Assembly: GCA_030037265.1 (NCBI GenBank)
Contig: JASHRQ010000013.1
Span: forward strand, 1-38,638
From: Thermoplasmata archaeon
GTDB lineage: Archaea; Thermoplasmatota; Thermoplasmata; Lutacidiplasmatales; UBA184
Direction: 5' to 3'
Length of the DNA: 38,638 nt
The notes beneath the pieces were generated by a model. The model saw nothing but the letters and a program-made list of their open reading frames with translations, did not search any database and was not told where the DNA came from. The translations under genes and the position numbers were made by a program. The first letter of the stretch is position 1. The number at the start of each line of letters is the position of its first letter. Below, in pieces: positions 6,244 through 25,960 of the stretch.

Positions 6244-7148
6244 CTCCGGAGCGCGGCGGCGACGGTCCGTTCGGTCGCGAGGTGCACCACCGTGAGGTCG
6301 TCGGTCGACCGCACCGGGCGGTCCAGCGGGAGCCTCGCCGCGATCACGCCGCCGAAGCGCGCGTACACGCGGGTCGTGTGGAGGGTGAGGCACCGACGAC
6401 CGAAGATCGGCCGGCCGGTCAGGTCCGGGTCGTGTCCGCGGAGGAACACCGCGAGGTGGGCGGAGCCGAGGAAGCGGGCGAGCTCGGCCTCGTCGAATGC
6501 GGGCGACACTCCCCGGTCCATCGCCGCCCGCGTCGGGTCCCTCCAGAGCAGGTCGCCCAGCAGCTCCGGGTCCCGCGTGTCGAACCGGGACTCCCACGGG
6601 GTAGACCCCCGGCGGGGAAAGCCGCCATGGGCGAGGAACACCCCGGAGCCGGTGTACGCCGCGAGCGGTCCCCGCTCGAGCAGACCGAGCAGCCGGTCGT
6701 ACCGACCGGGGTTCGGCCCCCACCCGTCGGACAGCTCCTCCGGGAGCGAGTGGGGCTCGACCGGCAGCCACCGGACGCCCTCGTGGTTCCCGAGCACGAG
6801 GACGACCCGGTCGGGGAAGCGCGCCCGGAGGGAGAGCAGGTAGAGCGCGTTCACTACCGAGCCGCGGGGACAGTCCGCCGGGGACCGGTCGACGTAGTCC
6901 CCGAGGCCGACGAAGGCCCGTTCCCGAGGACGCTCGAGGAACCAGCGCGCCGCCTCCACCGTCGAGCGCCAGTCCCCATGCGTATCCCCGACGACGATGG
7001 CGTCGGTGGCCCCCGGTGGGGCGACGCGGGACAGCGTCGGGGCCGTGGGCACCCGCGCCTCGAGTTCGCCCAAGAACTCATCGAGCTCGGGGGCGGATGC
7101 GCCGGCCAGCGTGGCCGGGTCGACCGATTCCGCGGTGAGACGACCCAT
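6240..7148 (-). CDS. Ser/Thr protein phosphatase, PPP family metallophosphoesterase
   Basis: The GDTHGD, GDYVDR and GNHE motifs occur in the canonical order. Confidence 0.8.
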   Translation of the reverse strand: MGRLTAESVDPATLAGASAPELDEFLGELEARVPTAPTLSRVAPPGATDAIVVGDTHGDWRSTVEAARWFLERPRERAFVGLGDYVDRSPADCPRGSVVNALYLLSLRARFPDRVVLVLGNHEGVRWLPVEPHSLPEELSDGWGPNPGRYDRLLGLLERGPLAAYTGSGVFLAHGGFPRRGSTPWESRFDTRDPELLGDLLWRDPTRAAMDRGVSPAFDEAELARFLGSAHLAVFLRGHDPDLTGRPIFGRRCLTLHTTRVYARFGGVIAARLPLDRPVRSTDDLTVVHLATERTVAAALRS

Positions 7149-7195
7149 GGAGGACCTGCTGGCTCACGGCGGGCAGCCGGGTGCGGGGGGCCGGA

Positions 7196-7227
7196 GTTCC
7201 CGAGGACCGCCGTCGGGGCGGACCTCC
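7196..7227 (-). other. Putative 32-nt intron in the T-loop of tRNA-Leu (about position 59/60)
   Basis: TTCAAA is followed by GGAGGTCCGCC-CCGAC-GGCGGTCCTC-GGGAAC and then T-CCGGC. The insert forms a 10-bp hairpin with one mismatch. The exact splice junction cannot be fixed by eye. Confidence 0.55.
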
Positions 7228-7274
7228 TTTGAACCGGCGCATGCCCTAGGCAACAGGGTTCTAAGCCCTGCCTC

Positions 7275-7302
7275 GGTGGTCCCTCCCGGAAGGCCGGCAG
7301 GA
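7275..7302 (-). other. Putative ~27-nt intron in the D-loop of tRNA-Leu
   Basis: TCCTGCCGG-CCTT-CCGGGAGGGACCAC lies between the D-loop ...GGCCAA and the 3' D-stem GAG. It forms a GC-rich hairpin. Confidence 0.5.
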
Positions 7303-7349
7303 TTGGCCGAGCTGGAGCACCCCCGCGGTCGGACGGCAGGGAGCCCCCC

Positions 7350-7358
7350 GTCATAAGC
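7350..7358 (-). promoter_or_regulatory. TATA-like box (GCTTATGAC on the minus strand) for tRNA-Leu
   Basis: Centred about 28 nt upstream of the tRNA 5' end at 7326. Confidence 0.45.
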
Positions 7359-7362
7359 AGAG

Positions 7363-7469
7363 TAGCCCCGGCAGGAGTTCCGGCCCGGGGACCGTCCCGG
7401 TCCCCGGACGTTCGAACCTGCGTCGCGAGATCCAGAGTCTCGCATGATTGGCCACTACACTACGGGGCT
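7363..7469 (-). tRNA. tRNA-Gln(CUG), 107 nt, with a putative 34-nt intron in the T-loop; CCA not encoded
   Basis: Read on the minus strand: AGCCCCG/CGGGGCT acceptor (the A1:U72 pair typical of archaeal tRNA-Gln) plus A73; D-arm GTGT-AGTGGCCAA-TCAT; anticodon arm CGAGA-CTCTGGA-TCTCG; T stem GCAGG/CCTGC with TTCGAA..(insert)..T. Confidence 0.8.
7376..7410 (-). other. Putative 34-nt intron in the T-loop of tRNA-Gln (about position 59/60)
   Basis: TTCGAA is followed by CGT-CCGGGGACC-GGGAC-GGTCCCCGG-GCCGGAAC and then T-CCTGC. The core is a 9-bp perfect hairpin. Confidence 0.6.
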
Positions 7470-7495
7470 ACGCGGCGTCGAGGGGCGGAGCCGCC

Positions 7496-7502
7496 TCATA
7501 AC
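7496..7502 (-). promoter_or_regulatory. TATA-like box (GTTATGA on the minus strand) for tRNA-Gln
   Basis: About 30 nt upstream of the tRNA 5' end at 7469. It has the same TTATGA core as the tRNA-Leu box. Confidence 0.45.
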
Positions 7503-7708
7503 GGTTGCCGCGGCGCAAGACCGGAGGGTCTCGGCGCGCCCCGCTCACAGGCCGTGCCGCCGGACGGGAGACCGCGTCGCCGAGGTCCCGGCCCGCCGGG
7601 AATCGCGCGCGAAGTGAGAAATACTCTCGGGCGGTCGGCCGCCCCCATCGGGGGCCGGACCCCTCCGAGGAGCGTCGGGGTCTCCGAGAGGGCGGGGGGC
7701 CGGGTTCG

Positions 7709-9427
7709 ATGGCAGCGGTCCGTCCTCCGACCTACGTGGTCCGGGCCGGCCTCTCGATGGGCGTGGTGGTGGTCGCTGCCATCGTGCTGGGCTCTCACAC
7801 GTTCGGCTTCGCGGGCTACTTGCCGCGCGCGACGCTCTACCTGTCCTACTCCTTCGTCCGGATGGTCCTCGCGTACTTCGCGTCCCTGGGCTTCGCCATC
7901 GTCTACGGCTACTTCGCGGCCACGAACCGGGGCGCCGAACGGGTCATGATCCCGGTCCTCGACATCCTCCAGTCGGTCCCGATCCTGGCGTTCTTCCCGG
8001 TCGCGGTCATCGTGCTCGTCCAGTTGCTGGGCCCCCAGCTCCTCGGACCCAACCTCGCGTGCATCTTCCTCATTTTCACCTCGATGGCCTGGAACATGGT
8101 CTTCGGGGTCTACGAATCGGTGAAGTCGCTCCCCACCGACCTCCGCGAGGCGGCCGACACCTTCGGGCTCTCGGGACTCCAGCGGTTCCGGCTGCTCCTG
8201 TTCCCCGCGATGGTCAACCGGCTCGTGTACAACTCGGTCCTCTCGTGGACCGGCGGCTGGTTCTTCCTCGTGGCCGCGGAGTACATCGCCTCGTCCGGCA
8301 TCAAGATCAACCTCCCCGGCATCGGGAGCTATCTCCTCACCGCCGCGAACAATGGGAACAGCTCGGCGCTTCTCGCCGGGCTGCTGGTCCTGGTCGTCCT
8401 CATCGTGCTCCTCGACCTGTTGCTCTGGCGCCCGCTCAGTCGGTGGGCCGAGAAGTACCGCTACGACACGGCCCCGAGCGGCGAGGACGCTGCCCCGGAG
8501 GGCTTCGTCGTCACGAACCGCGCGACCGCCCCGTTGCGCCGGGCGGTCACCGTGCTGGCCCGCGGCGCGCGCGCCGGGTTCCTCACCGCGTCGACGCCGT
8601 TCGTGACGTTGGGCCGGTACGCGCGTCGTCGCGTGGCCTCGCACCCGGGCTTCAAACTCCAGCACGCGGCCCGGTACGTCGGCCTCGGGGTCCTGCTGAT
8701 CCTCATCTGGTTGCTGCTGATCTATCTCGGGGTGTCGATCTACGGGGTGGTCGTCCATCCGCTGAGCGCCCTCGACCGGGCGCAGATCGCCACCCTCCCG
8801 GTCGCGTTGGCCTCCTCGCTCGGGCGGATTCTCGCCGCGTTCGGAATCTCGTTCGCGATCTCGTTCCCGCTCGCGCTCTGGCTGACCCGACGCCCGCGCG
8901 CCGGGCGGATCGGCCTCCCGCTGGTGGAGATCGTCGCGTCACTCCCCGCGACGGCGATCTTCCCCTTGATCGTCTTCGCGTTGCTCCGCTACTTCGGCGA
9001 CCAGCTCGCCTCGATCCTGATGCTCACGACCGGGATGATCTGGTACCTCTTCTTCAACGTCCTCTCCGGGATGCGCGCGGTGCCGCCGGACCTCGAGGAG
9101 GCGTCGAAGTCGTTCGGCGTCCGGGGACGACCCTACTACCGCCGGGTCCTCTTGCCGGCGATCTTCCCCGCGCTCATCACCGGCTCGATCACCGCCTTCG
9201 GCGGGGGTTGGAACACCGTGATCGTCGCGGAGTACCTCGCCGGGCCGACGAAGCCGATCTTCCAGGTTTCCGGCATCGGCCAGCTCCTCGAGGTCGGCTA
9301 TACCGAGGGGAGCTACGGCGTGTTCGTCGCCGCGCTGTTCACGCTCATCATCACGGTGATCGTCCTCAATGAGCTCGTCTGGAAGCCCCTGTACCGGCGG
9401 GCGGTCGAGAAATACCGGTACGACTGA
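7709..9427 (+). CDS. ABC transporter permease, duplicated (two fused NitT/TauT-like permease domains; COG4986-like)
   Basis: Two homologous polytopic halves, each with the binding-protein-dependent transport EAA-type loop region (...LREAADTFGLSGLQRFRLLLFPA... and ...LEEASKSFGVRGRPYYRRVLLPA...). I chose ATG 7709 because the upstream part of the track ORF is Arg/Pro-rich. Confidence 0.8.
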   Translation: MAAVRPPTYVVRAGLSMGVVVVAAIVLGSHTFGFAGYLPRATLYLSYSFVRMVLAYFASLGFAIVYGYFAATNRGAERVMIPVLDILQSVPILAFFPVAVIVLVQLLGPQLLGPNLACIFLIFTSMAWNMVFGVYESVKSLPTDLREAADTFGLSGLQRFRLLLFPAMVNRLVYNSVLSWTGGWFFLVAAEYIASSGIKINLPGIGSYLLTAANNGNSSALLAGLLVLVVLIVLLDLLLWRPLSRWAEKYRYDTAPSGEDAAPEGFVVTNRATAPLRRAVTVLARGARAGFLTASTPFVTLGRYARRRVASHPGFKLQHAARYVGLGVLLILIWLLLIYLGVSIYGVVVHPLSALDRAQIATLPVALASSLGRILAAFGISFAISFPLALWLTRRPRAGRIGLPLVEIVASLPATAIFPLIVFALLRYFGDQLASILMLTTGMIWYLFFNVLSGMRAVPPDLEEASKSFGVRGRPYYRRVLLPAIFPALITGSITAFGGGWNTVIVAEYLAGPTKPIFQVSGIGQLLEVGYTEGSYGVFVAALFTLIITVIVLNELVWKPLYRRAVEKYRYD

Positions 9428-11095: not shown

Positions 11096-11167
11096 GGGCA
11101 CGTAGATCAGCGGAAGATCGCTGCTTTCGCAAAGCAGAGGTCGGGGGTTCAAATCCCCCCGTGTCCA
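11096..11167 (+). tRNA. tRNA-Ala(CGC), no intron, CCA not encoded
   Basis: GGGCACG-TA-GATC-AGCGGAA-GATC-G-CTGCT-TTCGCAA-AGCAG-AGGTC-GGGGG-TTCAAAT-CCCCC-CGTGTCC-A. The G3:U70 alanine identity pair is present. Confidence 0.9.
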
Positions 11168-11372
11168 CCTCCTTCCCTTCGGTTCGAGGCCCGGGGGAAT
11201 CGCCGGGGGCGTCGGGCCGTTGCCGGACCCGGGGAGGGGGTCGAACCCGCCGACGCGGTCGCCGGAAACTGACCCCGGTCGACCGGGGGGACCGAAACGG
11301 TCGACGGACCTGAGGGACGGTCAATCTCCGTTCACGGGCGCCCCAAATAGAGCGCCCGGCCCCTCGGCCGCG

Positions 11373-21672: not shown

Positions 21673-24600
21673 TCAGGACGCTCCCGGCGGAGGAGGCGGA
21701 GGCGGCACGGGCGACGACGACGGCGGGGCGGGGCCCGGCGAGTACTCGGTGAGCGGCCCGGGGGGCGAGCCCGTCGGCGGGGACTTCTTCCGGCGCGTCG
21801 CGAGCACGACGCCGAGGCCGACCAGCACGACGACCGCGACGGCGATCGCCGCCCACTCCGCCGCGCTGAGCCCGCCCGGGAGCGAGGTGGACTTCGAGAA
21901 CGGGACCGTCACCGAGACCGGCGCCCCGTTCACCTCGACCGAGCCGGAGGCGTGGTCCGCGGCGTAGCCGGCGCTGCCGGTCACCCGGTACGAATACGTG
22001 CCGTTCGCGAGCTCGAAGACGATCGGTGGACCGGCCGAGTGCAGGGTCGTCGCGCCGACCCGCACCGACCAGTTCGCCCCCGCCGGTAGGCCCGACTCGG
22101 TGAACGTGACGGCGTAGGTCGTCGTGGCCGGGATCGCGAAGGCGATCGGGAGGCTCTGGTTCCGGTCCGCGTAGACGGACCCCGAGGGCGAGGAGGCCGC
22201 GTAGCCGTCCACCGACGGGATCGAGTAGGCGTACGTGCCGACGAGCGTCACGAACGAGATCGTGCCCGAGCCGCCGAACGTCGTGTTCGTCTTCGCGGTT
22301 CCGTTGAACGTCACGCTCCAGACGGTGTCGCTCGGGAGCCCCGACTCGACGAAGGTCGTCGTGAACGGCACGGCGACGAAGGAGATCGTGACCGTCTGGT
22401 TGGCGCCGGTGAAGTCGACGGCCCCGCTCGGCGGGGTCGGGGTGTAGCCGACGGGCGGGTCCACGACGAACCCGAGCGACGCCGACGGGAGGCTCCAGCT
22501 CGGAATGTAGACGAGCTCCGCCGGGGTCGAGTAGGGGACCGTGGTGAGGGTGAAGCCCCACGTCGTGCCGGCGGGCAGGCCGACCTCGCGGAACTCGAGC
22601 CAGTTCGCGAGGAACGCCGAGTACGGGTGGTCGTCCGCGATGCCCGACGCGATCGCGTAGCTCCCCGTGCCGGACCAATCGGACCAGTAGTTGCCGATGG
22701 CCCCCTCGTCGAAGACGACGTCCGGAGCGCCGGAGACCGCCGCCTGCAGATGGGCGGGGTTCGTGGTGCCGTTGGTGCTCGCCCCGTTGTTCGCGACGAA
22801 GTTGTTCGCGATGACGGTCGCGTCCTCGCCGCCGGTGACCGAGACACCGTAGCCGGCGGAGCTCTCGACGGTGTTCGCGGTCAGCACGACGGCGTCGGTG
22901 TCGGTGAGGTTCGCGCCGAGCGCGTTGCCGAAGAGGAACACCCCGTCGATCGTCGCCGACTCGGTCCGCGTGAGCTGGAGCCCGACCCCGCCGTTCCACT
23001 CGCTGAAGTTCGAGACCGAGAGCACGTCCGTGTCGTTGTCCCACAGCCCGAAGTTGTAGGTGAGGGCCGTGCCGTTCCGCACGGTCGCGTCGACGTCCTC
23101 CAGCGTCGCGACCGCCGTCGTCGGGAACGGACCGGAGCCGCCGGCCGTGGTGAAGTAGTTGCCCGACAGCGCGGTCTCGCTGGCGTTGAAGCCCGAGACG
23201 CTCACGAGCTCGTCCCCCGCGAGCGCCGCGCCCGTCGAGCCGGAGCTCGCCCGCACGTCGGAGACCGTCACCTCGTCGAGGTCCTCGACGAGGACTCCCA
23301 CGGAGAGACCGGAGGCCGTCGAGTTCGTCACGACGGCGTCGTCGCCGTCGAGCCCTACATACCCGATCGAATTGCCGGTCGCGGAGACGTTCGCCACCGT
23401 GGTGTCGTCGGAGTCGAGCACCACGAGCGCGGCGAGCGTTCCGTCGGACGCGCTGACGTCGATCGCGTGGACCCCGTCCCCCTCGGACACCTCGACCTCG
23501 TCGCTCGCGCTCACCGACACGCCGCTCAGGGTGACCGAGTCGCTCAGCGCCACGAGGCCCCCCGCGCTGGCGGAGGCGGCGGAGAGGTCGTCGATCACGA
23601 GGCCATCGAGCTCCTCGAGGTCGACCGCCTCGGAACCCGTGGTCACCGAGTCCCCCGCGATCGTGACGGCGGTGGCGCTCCCGCCGTACACCCCGATCGC
23701 GTCGTCGGAGGCGCTCACGGAGCCGATGGACAGGTCGCTTCCGCCGTCGACGTAGACCGCGACGGACGAGTACCCCTCCGAGTCCAGGCCCGCGGCCGCG
23801 GCGGTGTGGACCGAGCTCCCGACATCGTCGAGCAGGACGGCGCCGAAGGCCCCGGTTCCGGCCGTGACCTGCGAGAAGGCGCTGTCCGTGGAGTTCTCGG
23901 CGATCGCCCCCAGGGAGTCCTGGCCCGTGACGAGCCCGTCGACCGTCGACCCGGTCGTCGCCCAGAACTCCACGGCCGGGATCGGGATCGTCTCGGTCGG
24001 CCCGTACAGGAGGGCGGAGTTCCCGATGACCGACGTGTTGTCGACGGAGAAGAGCCCCGTGCCGAAGTTGAAGAAGTATCCCTGGGTCCAGTACGGGATC
24101 GTGACCGTGTCGACGCGGTCGGTCACGTAGGTGAACGTGGAGGCCGACTGCGTGAACTCATTCAGGTGGACCGAGGCGGAGAGCCCGAACTCGGCGAACA
24201 GCAGGAACGTCGGATACCCGAAGTCGTTCACGTGGCGGAAGGACGGGTCGAGCGCCGCCTGGGCGTCGTCGATCGTGACGGTCGTCGTCCCGGTGTCGTA
24301 GCTCACGCCCGTGGTGCCGGAGGTGCCGAACGCCTCCGCCTGTGCCGCCGAATTGAGGTAGACCGGCGAGGAGAACTCCGCGGCGTCGCCCACGGCCGGG
24401 GGCGTCACGGTGCCGCTGGCCATGATCGCCGCGGTGTACTCGGTGGTGTAGCCGTCGGCCAGGACTTCCGCGACGTACCCGTCGCCGGCGGCGGGGGGCG
24501 GGAGGACCATCGTGGCGGTGCCGGTGGAGTCGCCCGGTGCGTACGAGAAGTTGAGCCGCGAGGCGTTCACGCCGTATTCCGCCGAGAAGGTCGTCTCGTT

Positions 24601-25929
24601 CGTGACGAAGACGAAGCCGTAGTCCGCGGGCGCGACGACCGAGACCGTGATCGACCCCGGGAGGGCGGCCGGCCCGAACGTCGAGTTCGTGGTGTTCCAC
24701 AGCCCGTACATCATCGACGGCCCCTGGCTCAGGTACTCGGTGCCGCCCCCGCCCTCGTAGGTGGCGGCGACGCCCAGCGAGGTCTCCCCCGTGTCGACGC
24801 CGTAGTCGTAGGCGGAGCTCACGTTCTCGTACGCGGAGTTCGCCGAGCTCCACCACTTGAGGCTCGCGGTCCCGTCGAGGCTGACGATGTTCGCGTTCGA
24901 GCCGTCGCCGTTGCCGCCCAGGTCCAGTTCGGCGTCGTTAAACAGGTACCCGGTCGGATTGTAGTGGAATCCGTTCACCTGGAACTGCGGCCGGTGGGCG
25001 AGGGAGGTGACTCCGTTGAACGTCACGAAGTCGTACGAGCCGCTCGAGGCGCAGGAGGAGTCGGAAAGGCTGTAGTTGAAGTAGACTCCGGGCACGTCGG
25101 CGGTGCCGTTCCATACGATCGTGAGGTTGTTGTACAGGTCGAGGTCGAACGGGTAGCTCACGGTGCACGCGGGACCATACTTGTAGTACAGCGGCGAGTC
25201 GAGGGTCCCTGTGTAGTTCTGGAGGGTCCCCGCCTTGAGGTACACCGCGCTGCTCGAGAAGTTCCAGATGTTGTTCTCGAACTGGAGCTCGGTCCCGTCG
25301 AAGTGGACCACGCTCTGGATCCAGAACTCCCCGGTGGTCGACCCCGGGTAGGAGATGTTCGTGGCGACCGTATTCAGCTGGAAGGTCATGTTGTTCGGCC
25401 CGGACTCCCAGTCGGCGTAGCCCGGGTTGTACGCCTCGAAGGACGAGAAGCTCAGCTCCGCGGCGATGCTCGTCGTGTTGAACTCGTACGGACCGTTCGA
25501 GCCGAGACCGAGGTCGGAGATGCCGGTCGGGTACGGGTTGGTGAGGTAACTGGGCTCCAGCGGAGCGCTGGCGGGACGCGTCGCGGGCGCGTCCCGCGGC
25601 AGGAACACACTGGAGGCGTTGAGCTGCTTCTCGGCGATCAGTGCCTGGGCCGCCGTGATCCCTGCGGGTTGGGTCGTCGAGCCAGCGACCGCGGCAGACG
25701 AGACGCGGTCGACCGACGAGAGACCGAACGAGCTGGCGTTCGCGAAGAGGGAACTGCCCGAGGCCGTCGAGGAGGACGAGGCCCCGGGAGCGAGGTCTGT
25801 CGGCCCGTGCGCGGCCGAGGGTGCCCCGGGGATCGCACCGGCGGCGAGCCCCGCGAGACCGAGCGACGAGACCACGAGCACCCACGCGAGCGCGACCGGG
25901 ATCGCCCAAGTCCCCCGGCGACCGAGCAT
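21673..25929 (-). CDS. Giant secreted/membrane-anchored glycoprotein: thermopsin (peptidase A5)-like domain + right-handed beta-helix region + 3 tandem C-terminal modules + TM anchor + poly-Pro tail
   Basis: Signal-peptide-like N-terminus (MLGRRGTWAIPVALAWVLVVSSLGLAGLAAG). NPYPTGISDLGLG, MTFQLNTV, FWIQSVVHF, FENNIWNFSS and NDAELDLGGNGDG parallel the motifs I recall from Sulfolobus thermopsin. Very many N-x-S/T sequons. C-terminal hydrophobic helix followed by RRKK and PPPPPPPP. I prefer ATG 25929 over ATG 25956, which sits inside the TATA box. Confidence 0.8.
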   Translation of the reverse strand: MLGRRGTWAIPVALAWVLVVSSLGLAGLAAGAIPGAPSAAHGPTDLAPGASSSSTASGSSLFANASSFGLSSVDRVSSAAVAGSTTQPAGITAAQALIAEKQLNASSVFLPRDAPATRPASAPLEPSYLTNPYPTGISDLGLGSNGPYEFNTTSIAAELSFSSFEAYNPGYADWESGPNNMTFQLNTVATNISYPGSTTGEFWIQSVVHFDGTELQFENNIWNFSSSAVYLKAGTLQNYTGTLDSPLYYKYGPACTVSYPFDLDLYNNLTIVWNGTADVPGVYFNYSLSDSSCASSGSYDFVTFNGVTSLAHRPQFQVNGFHYNPTGYLFNDAELDLGGNGDGSNANIVSLDGTASLKWWSSANSAYENVSSAYDYGVDTGETSLGVAATYEGGGGTEYLSQGPSMMYGLWNTTNSTFGPAALPGSITVSVVAPADYGFVFVTNETTFSAEYGVNASRLNFSYAPGDSTGTATMVLPPPAAGDGYVAEVLADGYTTEYTAAIMASGTVTPPAVGDAAEFSSPVYLNSAAQAEAFGTSGTTGVSYDTGTTTVTIDDAQAALDPSFRHVNDFGYPTFLLFAEFGLSASVHLNEFTQSASTFTYVTDRVDTVTIPYWTQGYFFNFGTGLFSVDNTSVIGNSALLYGPTETIPIPAVEFWATTGSTVDGLVTGQDSLGAIAENSTDSAFSQVTAGTGAFGAVLLDDVGSSVHTAAAAGLDSEGYSSVAVYVDGGSDLSIGSVSASDDAIGVYGGSATAVTIAGDSVTTGSEAVDLEELDGLVIDDLSAASASAGGLVALSDSVTLSGVSVSASDEVEVSEGDGVHAIDVSASDGTLAALVVLDSDDTTVANVSATGNSIGYVGLDGDDAVVTNSTASGLSVGVLVEDLDEVTVSDVRASSGSTGAALAGDELVSVSGFNASETALSGNYFTTAGGSGPFPTTAVATLEDVDATVRNGTALTYNFGLWDNDTDVLSVSNFSEWNGGVGLQLTRTESATIDGVFLFGNALGANLTDTDAVVLTANTVESSAGYGVSVTGGEDATVIANNFVANNGASTNGTTNPAHLQAAVSGAPDVVFDEGAIGNYWSDWSGTGSYAIASGIADDHPYSAFLANWLEFREVGLPAGTTWGFTLTTVPYSTPAELVYIPSWSLPSASLGFVVDPPVGYTPTPPSGAVDFTGANQTVTISFVAVPFTTTFVESGLPSDTVWSVTFNGTAKTNTTFGGSGTISFVTLVGTYAYSIPSVDGYAASSPSGSVYADRNQSLPIAFAIPATTTYAVTFTESGLPAGANWSVRVGATTLHSAGPPIVFELANGTYSYRVTGSAGYAADHASGSVEVNGAPVSVTVPFSKSTSLPGGLSAAEWAAIAVAVVVLVGLGVVLATRRKKSPPTGSPPGPLTEYSPGPAPPSSSPVPPPPPPPGAS
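21898..22599 (-). repeat. Three tandem ~75-aa protein modules (x-E-x-GLP-x-x-x-x-W ... G-Y ... SG-x-V ... PF) inside the giant glycoprotein
   Basis: LEFREVGLPAGTTWGF.., FTTTFVESGLPSDTVWSV.. and YAVTFTESGLPAGANWSV.. share spacing and motifs. The repeat is at protein level and the DNA copies have diverged. Confidence 0.6.
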
Positions 25930-25947
25930 GCGGAAACGACCGCCCGG

Positions 25948-25960
25948 CCTATACATAAAC
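25948..25960 (-). promoter_or_regulatory. TATA box (GTTTATGTATAGG on the minus strand) for the giant glycoprotein gene
   Basis: Centred about 25 nt upstream of ATG 25929, implying a leaderless mRNA. Confidence 0.45.

Follow-up and report, generated by a model that had tools for sequence, protein, structure and literature searches.

A tRNA-Leu(UAG) gene with introns in both the D-loop and the T-loop, conserved across the Thermoplasmata order Lutacidiplasmatales

The tRNA-Leu(UAG) gene on the minus strand of the window (the whole 38,638-nt stretch of DNA analyzed here) is confirmed to carry two archaeal-type introns at non-canonical positions, one in the D-loop and one in the T-loop, and none at position 37/38. 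The anatomy of the gene, its junctions, the conservation with covariation of its bulge-helix-bulge (BHB) motifs as well as its order-wide distribution are all established. In archaea, tRNA splicing consists of EndA cleavage at the bulges followed by RtcB ligation. Very probably, the gene specifies a functional tRNA-Leu(UAG), probably single-copy and likely co-transcribed with a neighboring tRNA-Gln, and its two BHB introns would be removed by this standard archaeal pathway. Two findings go beyond the original prediction made from this DNA: the Leu introns are order-wide and not peculiar to one genome, and the adjacent tRNA-Gln(CUG) also holds a T-loop intron.

Anatomy and annotation of the interrupted tRNA genes

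Read from 7326 to 7182, the minus strand gives GCGGGGG-TG-CTCC-AGCTCGGCCAA-(intron tcctgccggccttccgggagggaccac)-C-GAG-G-CAGGG-CTTAGAA-CCCTG-TTGCCTAGGGCATGC-GCCGG-TTCAAA-(intron ggaggtccgccccgacggcggtcctcgggaac)-T-CCGGC-CCCCCGC-A, which is divided into the following features:

7182..7326, minus strand: tRNA-Leu(UAG) gene, 145 nt before splicing and 86 nt after; ARAGORN identifies the spliced product as Leu(tag), and there are 72 homologues (window plus 71 related loci) and 118 in metagenomes
7303..7326, minus strand: Leu exon 1, G1 to A21, GCGGGGGTGCTCCAGCTCGGCCAA; junction set by alleles without the D-loop intron (L058, L123, L190)
7276..7302, minus strand: Leu D-loop intron, 27 nt, position 21/22, tcctgccggccttccgggagggaccac; supported by BHB pairing and intron-less alleles
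7228..7275, minus strand: Leu exon 2, from C22 to A59, holding the second (3') strand of the D stem, the UAG anticodon arm, the long variable arm and the 5' half of the T arm
7196..7227, minus strand: Leu T-loop intron, 32 nt, position 59/60, ggaggtccgccccgacggcggtcctcgggaac; best-scoring BHB candidate of the Leu gene
7182..7195, minus strand: Leu exon 3, U60 to A73, TCCGGCCCCCCGCA; invariant across all homologues

The original prediction of a class II tRNA-Leu(UAG) at 7326..7182 was borne out in its structural detail: the acceptor stem GCGGGGG/CCCCCGC with A73, the anticodon arm CAGGG-CTTAGAA-CCCTG, the T stem GCCGG/CCGGC and the long variable arm are all present, the inserts described after ..GGCCAA and after TTCAAA are exactly 27 and 32 nt long, and folding confirmed that each forms its own GC-rich hairpin. 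The non-canonical position of both introns, with none at 37/38, holds as well, and the anticipated spliced product of about 86 nt is indeed recognized as a tRNA by ARAGORN. Likewise, the BHB motifs foreseen at both Leu junctions do form and are conserved among homologues, and the gene proved as easy for standard annotation to miss as had been supposed, as demonstrated with ARAGORN and Rfam, including an ARAGORN intron search of 7150-7500.

The spliced Leu 86-mer was identified as tRNA-Leu(tag) across a wide range of trial boundaries. With the final boundaries, ARAGORN draws a normal class II cloverleaf whose D stem has 3 bp and whose D-loop of 11 nt includes GG; the variable arm is long, the T-loop reads TTCAAAT and A73 is present. 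The spliced sequence contains the conserved nucleotides U8, A14, G18G19, A21, U33, T54-C56, A58, C61 and A73. Removal of the inserts restores a canonical cloverleaf in ARAGORN for both Leu (86-mer) and Gln (73-mer). Expected exon-exon junctions (marked by a slash) are GGCCAA/CGAGG and GGTTCAAA/TCCGG for Leu, and GGTTCGAA/TCCTGCC for Gln.

Other architectures were considered and ruled out: a split or permuted tRNA gene, since the three Leu exons are contiguous and colinear inside 145 nt, and a group I or group II self-splicing intron, since the inserts measure 27-34 nt and Rfam intron matches are absent from 7100-7550 at E<=10.

The anticodon loop (7261-7267) carries A37 (CTTAGAA) in the window and a few close relatives, and G37 (CTTAGGA), the usual m1G37 context of a CUN-reading tRNA-Leu, in most of the order. 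One related Leu gene (L023:5665-5812, minus strand) has the anticodon loop CCTAGGA, with C at position 33 in place of the universal U, for which a real variant or an assembly error could account.

The adjoining tRNA-Gln(CUG) gene and its surroundings comprise the following features:

7363..7469, minus strand: tRNA-Gln(CUG) gene, 107 nt before splicing and 73 nt after; ARAGORN identifies the spliced form as tRNA-Gln(ctg)
7377..7410, minus strand: tRNA-Gln T-loop intron, 34 nt, position 59/60; the central helix H has 4/4 pairs in 73/73 homologues
7327..7362, minus strand: Gln-Leu spacer, 36 nt in the window and 27 nt in most relatives
7496..7508, minus strand: BRE/TATA-like element GCAACCGTTATGA, lying roughly at -39 to -27 relative to the start of Gln; GCAACGTTTATCAAC-like in relatives

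Among its 73 homologues the Gln intron is always 34 nt long, with exons 98.9% and introns 61% identical, and all 112 metagenome Gln copies agree with a 34-nt T-loop intron (185 copies overall). The GCAACGTTTATCAAC-like element, a putative promoter, is conserved upstream of Gln only; most relatives are without any promoter-like element before Leu, the window spacer having TTATGA about 30 nt upstream of Leu, and the start-to-start distance from Gln to Leu is 134 nt in 53 of 73 loci. Because a promoter-like element precedes Gln only and the spacer is 27 nt in most loci, Gln and Leu probably form one transcription unit, which would be read from a single BRE/TATA promoter.

Neither annotation tool called Leu in the whole window: ARAGORN reported only tRNA-Gln at 7397-7470 and tRNA-Ala at 11096-11169, and Rfam at its gathering thresholds reported Ala alone. 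At E<=10, Rfam still gave no Leu match and gave Gln as a 19.1-bit sub-threshold tRNA match at 7402-7467. Both Gln calls are wrong, because in each the 3' half of the tRNA is built from intron bases. Within 7150-7500, ARAGORN run with intron options (-i, -i0,60) and with lowered thresholds never recovered the true Leu gene, and at -ps80 it produced a truncated Leu(tag) together with spurious Gly and Ser calls. A combined BHB-splice and ARAGORN scan for additional disrupted tRNAs found only Gln window-wide, besides spurious Ala and Ser, and nothing beyond the Gln/Leu/Ala trio in 80 related loci. The third tRNA of the region, tRNA-Ala(CGC) at 11096-11167, is uninterrupted in the window (68 bits in Rfam) and in 67 related loci. 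Two of the three tRNA genes in the region, then, escape or mislead ARAGORN and Rfam. MAG quality grading uses tRNA counts, and codon-reading inventories of the Lutacidiplasmatales, an abundant soil order, may suffer where no intron-aware archaeal tRNA search is applied.

Host lineage and distribution of the introns

For comparison, 80 relatives of the ABC permease flanking the tRNA genes (7505-9427) were taken from a one-genome-per-species collection, at 49-66% identity. All except one, deposited as 'bacterium' (L042), come from 'Thermoplasmata archaeon' MAGs of soil, peat and hot springs (79 of 80), and the GC content of the 80 loci is 63-72.5%. They include UBA184, SubAcS15-31 (the best match), SubAcS13-64 and AcS11-62; the last three are listed under Ca. 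Lutacidiplasmatales (Table 1, PMC9287336), to which UBA184 is assigned in the text of the same paper, where the order is described as formerly TMEG, with ~69% GC and ~2.1 Mb (PMC9287336). A taxonomy lookup places the order Lutacidiplasmatales in Thermoplasmatota. As the relatives include Lutacidiplasmatales MAGs, the window belongs to that order or its immediate neighborhood. The very high GC content remarked on in the original prediction is real (67-76% in the window, with 72% given for the organism). The gene does not serve as a marker of a Thermoproteales-type lineage: the host is one of the Thermoplasmata (Lutacidiplasmatales/TMEG) and not a Thermoproteales-like crenarchaeon, its relatives being Thermoplasmata and not members of Thermoproteales or TACK.

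The gene content of the window includes an archaeal-type GluRS, a thermopsin-NosD protein, transporters and hydrolases. The thermopsin-NosD protein (1427 aa, 21673-25956, minus strand) combines a thermopsin peptidase domain with NosD/beta-helix repeats and is probably a secreted acid protease, which would fit a Thermoplasmata organism of acid soil.

A Leu gene with inserts at the same two sites lies directly upstream of the permease in 71 of the 80 related loci; among those where it is missing are short or truncated contigs that extend little beyond the permease on its upstream side. A metagenome scan with the pattern CGGCCAA-N{0,30}-CGAGGCAGGGCTTAG matched at least 120 contigs. Among the 120 matches listed, 118 contigs hold a complete Leu gene, with the T-loop intron present in all 118, the D-loop intron present in 116 and absent from two. 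With a gap of 0-30 nt allowed, just two of the 120 matches listed are uninterrupted, so that an intron-less paralogue with the same exons is not evident.

In the 72 Leu genes consisting of the window gene and these 71, the exons are on average 98.2% identical, the D-loop inserts 56% and the T-loop inserts 62%, with 70 distinct D-loop and 72 distinct T-loop sequences; the exons are near-invariant and evidently under purifying selection. Insert positions in Leu never shift across homologues. The D-loop insert is 27 nt long in 58 genes and 24, 30, 35 or 26 nt in the rest. In the T-loop, 51 genes have an insert of 35 nt and 19 have one of 32 nt. Across the related and metagenome loci (L001-L080, L099-L218), intron lengths were also seen to step by three, with 24/27/30 nt in the D-loop and 32/35/38 nt in the T-loop.

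The D-loop insert is absent from one of the related Leu genes (L058:5391-5511, minus strand), which reads GGCCAA-C-GAGG, and this fixes the D-loop junctions of the window unambiguously between A21 and C22, at 7302..7276. Two metagenome genes representing one variant (L123 and L190) are also without the D-loop intron and read GGCCAA-CGAGG; judged by its T-loop intron, the variant is unrelated to L058. On these alleles, the D-loop intron is to be counted as lost precisely at least twice, the rest of the Leu gene being unchanged. T-loop introns are retained throughout, with no loss in ~190 Leu and 185 Gln genes. With ~190 sequences of each gene, this is a well-sampled case of fast intron turnover under a fixed BHB constraint, and the dataset also displays precise intron loss (in the D-loop only) and three-step length changes.

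The same data bear on whether the locus is a decaying pseudogene or an assembly artefact, a reading that has in its favor the failure of ARAGORN and Rfam to call Leu and nothing else. It is extremely improbable given that the same architecture recurs in ~190 independently assembled contigs from many studies with near-invariant exons, and that the window contig has been recovered in an NCBI assembly and, independently, in two Logan assemblies; the comparative data are taken as already refuting it. An MFS transporter of the window is residue-identical on JASIBX010000093.1 (GCA_030044915.1) and in two independent Logan assemblies.

BHB motifs and the proposed splicing route

To locate BHB motifs, all candidate splice-site pairs were scored for the helix h, a 4-bp central helix H, 3-nt bulges and the helix h', with cleavage placed after the second bulge nucleotide. 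All three introns (Leu D-loop, Leu T-loop and Gln) can form a 3-4-3 hBHBh' with cleavage sites in the canonical register. For the Leu T-loop intron, h is the T stem (5 bp), H consists of U54-A, U55.G, C56-G and A57.G with GGGA as the intron strand, the bulges are A58 A59/g and a c/U60, and h' is the intron hairpin, which makes this intron the exact T-arm analogue of the 37/38 intron of the anticodon arm. In 72/72 homologues h has 5 bp and H has 3/4 standard pairs. The fourth position of H, which adjoins the 5' bulge (within 7228-7231 and 7198-7201 of the window), is A.G in 69 of the 72 genes, A.A in three and never A-U, which suggests that the purine-purine pair at A57 may be under selection, since a single substitution would give A-U. 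The 59/60 register is favored over 58/59 because A59 is invariant and the last intron base is variable.

For the Leu D-loop intron, h pairs C16 U17 C17a with G23 A24 G25, H pairs G18 G19 C20 C20a with the intron tail, the bulges are A20b A21/n and n n/C22 (AA/u and ac/C in the window), and h' is again the intron hairpin. The tail reads GGCC, GGCU or GGUC in 68 of 71 genes, and GACC in the window, giving one C.A mismatch (3/4 pairs); H reaches 4/4 pairs in 68/71 genes and h has 3 bp in 66/71. In this conformer the 3' strand of the D stem is borrowed by the second CUC within the D-loop. In the Gln gene, the scan gave H with 4/4 pairs, h of 5 bp and h' of 12 bp, and the minimum-free-energy fold of the 107-mer is a perfect hBHBh' (z = -3.4).

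BHB cells are paired in 95.3% of cases for the Leu D-loop intron, against at most 58% in slid controls, in 91.6% for the Leu BHB in alignment A2 (55 sequences), against at most 59% slid, and in 95.7% for Gln (69 distinct homologues), against at most 58% slid. Leu cells with changes on both sides number 77, compared with 22.4 +/- 4.0 in shuffles, and none of 500 shuffles attains any of the observed measures. Both-side (compensatory) changes are seen in 4/5 and 4/4 pairs of the two Leu h' helices and in 4/4 pairs of the Gln h' helix. Finally, the junctions of the intron-less alleles (L058, L123/L190) coincide with the canonical BHB cleavage register. A second D-region candidate that scored highly in the scan, 7311..7280 (32 nt), was rejected as it deletes G18G19 and conflicts with the intron-less alleles.

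The D-loop region can adopt another fold. In the window, its minimum-free-energy structure favors CUCGG/CCGAG over the BHB, and RNAalifold on the Leu alignment returned an alternative that retains the D stem and joins G15-C17a to the intron tail. This D-stem-keeping alternative agrees with the alignment just as well as the BHB does (98.6% paired), and the exon side, being invariant, gives covariation no means of deciding between the two folds. The BHB conformer is taken as the substrate because the junctions, set independently by the intron-less alleles, fall exactly 2 nt 3' of H on each strand, a placement left unexplained by the alternative. The two D-region folds may constitute a conformational switch in the Leu precursor. 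Within 7276-7317 (minus strand), the tail of the D-loop intron, GGGGCC or in the window GGGACC, can pair either with G18G19C20C20a or with G15C16U17C17a, and a U16/A47 double change in one related gene (L024) fits the D-stem-keeping fold.

Taking the BHB conformers as the substrate, the following route is proposed. The 3' tail of the D-loop intron would pair with G18-G19-C20-C20a and that of the T-loop intron with U54-U55-C56-A57, forming in each case the 4-bp central helix of a 3-4-3 BHB with splice sites between the second and third bulge nucleotides. EndA would cut at the four bulges, and RtcB would ligate the three exons into the 86-nt class II tRNA. Since the central helices tie up G18 G19 as well as U54 U55 C56, and the D-loop BHB opens the D stem, no L-shape can be attained until both introns are out; the predicted order of processing is thus removal of both introns before formation of the elbow and L-shape.

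The same pairing speaks to the suggestion that the inserts are kept in the mature tRNA as expansion hairpins. Their tightly conserved lengths (34 nt in Gln, 27 and 32/35 nt in Leu) and maintained hairpins would agree with such a role, but pairing with G18G19 and U54-C56 would abolish the elbow, the flanks form BHBs with 3-nt bulges in exact register, and the D-loop insert has been precisely lost twice from an otherwise unchanged gene, which together make retention very unlikely.

The splicing endonuclease and known systems

Homologues of EndA were collected with M. jannaschii EndA, which matches PDB 1A79 across all 171 residues of the chain, as the query, proceeding through P0101 to 1744 Thermoplasmatota homologues, and then with P0109. 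The best 120 of the 1744 are ~350-aa two-unit (alpha'2-type) proteins, those that are named being from Thermoplasmata, Methanomassiliicoccales or Thermoplasmatota. High-GC soil EndAs (P0229, P0231, P0151) lie on contigs of 68-71% GC, and P0231, when aligned with EndA of M. jannaschii and of A. fulgidus and with the fused enzyme of M. kandleri, has nothing inserted near the catalytic His or at its C-terminus. EndA was not found in the window, nor by tblastn in the 80 related and 120 metagenome loci; none of the ten EndA-bearing contigs that were looked up is from a genome shown to carry the interrupted tRNAs, and no disrupted tRNA adjoins EndA on the EndA contigs examined.

The EndA of the order is likely a loop-less alpha'2 enzyme, and because the three motifs are strict or nearly so, a narrow-specificity EndA would suffice mechanistically. 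We therefore put forward, tentatively and at somewhat short of even odds, that the order has fixed D-loop 21/22 and T-loop 59/60 introns in tRNAs it cannot do without, although its sole EndA is a loop-less alpha'2 enzyme of narrow specificity. If so, intron position would be uncoupled from motif relaxation, contradicting the usual co-evolution picture in which non-canonical positions need a broad-specificity endonuclease, and splicing would be an obligatory gate ahead of tRNA elbow formation, with G18G19 and U54-C56 locked in the precursor.

A different account, which we regard as rather unlikely, accepts the introns as real and gives the order a broad-specificity EndA, either (alpha-beta)2, epsilon2 or alpha'2 with a specific loop, with the D-loop intron cut from a relaxed HBh'-like conformer that keeps the D stem, in the manner of the M. 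kandleri tRNA-Glu intron at 20b/21. It is favored by the D-stem-keeping conformer, which is supported as well as the BHB, by the Leu T-loop helix, whose non-standard A57 pair throughout leaves the motif not fully strict, by the published connection between non-canonical positions and EndAs that bear a specific loop (PMC5829648, PMC3239211), and by the lack, in the best-120 lists, of an alpha'2 cluster attributable to >80 Lutacidiplasmatales species. However, each of the three introns can form a 3-4-3 hBHBh' in canonical register, the Thermoplasmatota EndA homologues in the best 120 per search are all two-unit proteins of ~350 aa, and in the high-GC soil example the surroundings of the catalytic His show no insertion when compared with EndA of M. 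jannaschii or A. fulgidus.

BHB introns at non-canonical positions are already known as a kind. To our knowledge, tRNA introns of this kind are considered uncommon in lineages other than TACK, DPANN, Methanopyrus and Hadesarchaea, and are tied to special EndA variants. Work attributed to Sugahara et al. 2008 and Fujishima et al. 2010 is said to have described multi-intron tRNA genes in Thermoproteales (Pyrobaculum, Thermofilum, Caldivirga), with up to three short BHB introns. The EndA of Thermoproteales is an (alpha-beta)2 enzyme with the specific loop of crenarchaea, and a good many of the motifs there are of relaxed form (HBh', hBH). The system described here shares with them introns in the D-arm, T-arm and other non-canonical sites, fast intron turnover and invisibility to standard tRNA finders. 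In contrast to those Thermoproteota, the present hosts make up a Thermoplasmata order, throughout which the positions are fixed, and the 3-4-3 motifs are canonical or nearly so.

Closer in position is ARMAN-2, in which tRNA-Cys and tRNA-Pro have an intron at 59/60 (PMC3239211). It resembles the present case in having a T-loop intron at exactly that site, a strict hBHBh' motif in Pro and a lineage outside TACK, but its EndA is a three-unit epsilon2 enzyme with a specific loop, its Cys intron is a 13-nt relaxed hBH, and no combination of D-loop and T-loop introns is reported there. In Methanopyrus kandleri, pre-tRNA-Glu(UUC) carries a D-loop intron at 20b/21 and a canonical intron (PMC5829648), which provides a euryarchaeal multi-intron tRNA with an intron in the 3' D-loop only one nucleotide from the position found here. 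Its motif, unlike the present one, is a relaxed HBh' that neither alpha'2 nor the species' own EndA, a loop-less (alpha-beta)2 enzyme, cuts well, and it is a single gene in one species, whereas the D-loop intron described here can form a full hBHBh' and is conserved in >180 sequences. Alpha4 and alpha'2 EndAs require the hBHBh' in its strict 3-4-3 form, and the occurrence of non-canonical positions follows that of EndAs bearing a specific loop (PMC3239211, PMC5829648).

The description of the Lutacidiplasmatales used tRNAscan-SE -A and leaves introns unmentioned (PMC9287336), and in the full-text literature we found no report of non-canonical tRNA introns in Thermoplasmata, Thermoplasmatota or Lutacidiplasmatales. 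What appears to be new is the host lineage for such introns and the order-wide fixation of three of them in two adjacent, probably co-transcribed tRNAs; the involvement of a narrow-specificity EndA may be a further novelty. Stable across >80 species-level genomes of a Thermoplasmatota order, the three introns would offer a clean natural test of the EndA/intron co-evolution model once the EndA of the order is in hand.

Some further observations were made on the EndA contigs. High-GC Thermoplasmatota EndA genes occur in two conserved neighborhoods, one (L081, L082, L096-L098) with the order purS-purL-purQ-...-EndA, and the other (L087-L094) with a Pilin_N/FG-GAP giant protein, PDDEXK_19-HTH, EndA, ..., and a TFIIB-Gar1-like protein. 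A contig of the first group (L096:1688-1900; Logan SRR22216420, 67% GC, with the alpha'2 EndA P0162) encodes a tRNA-Gln(UUG) with a 35-nt intron at the canonical position 37/38, followed by an uninterrupted tRNA-Glu(UUC).
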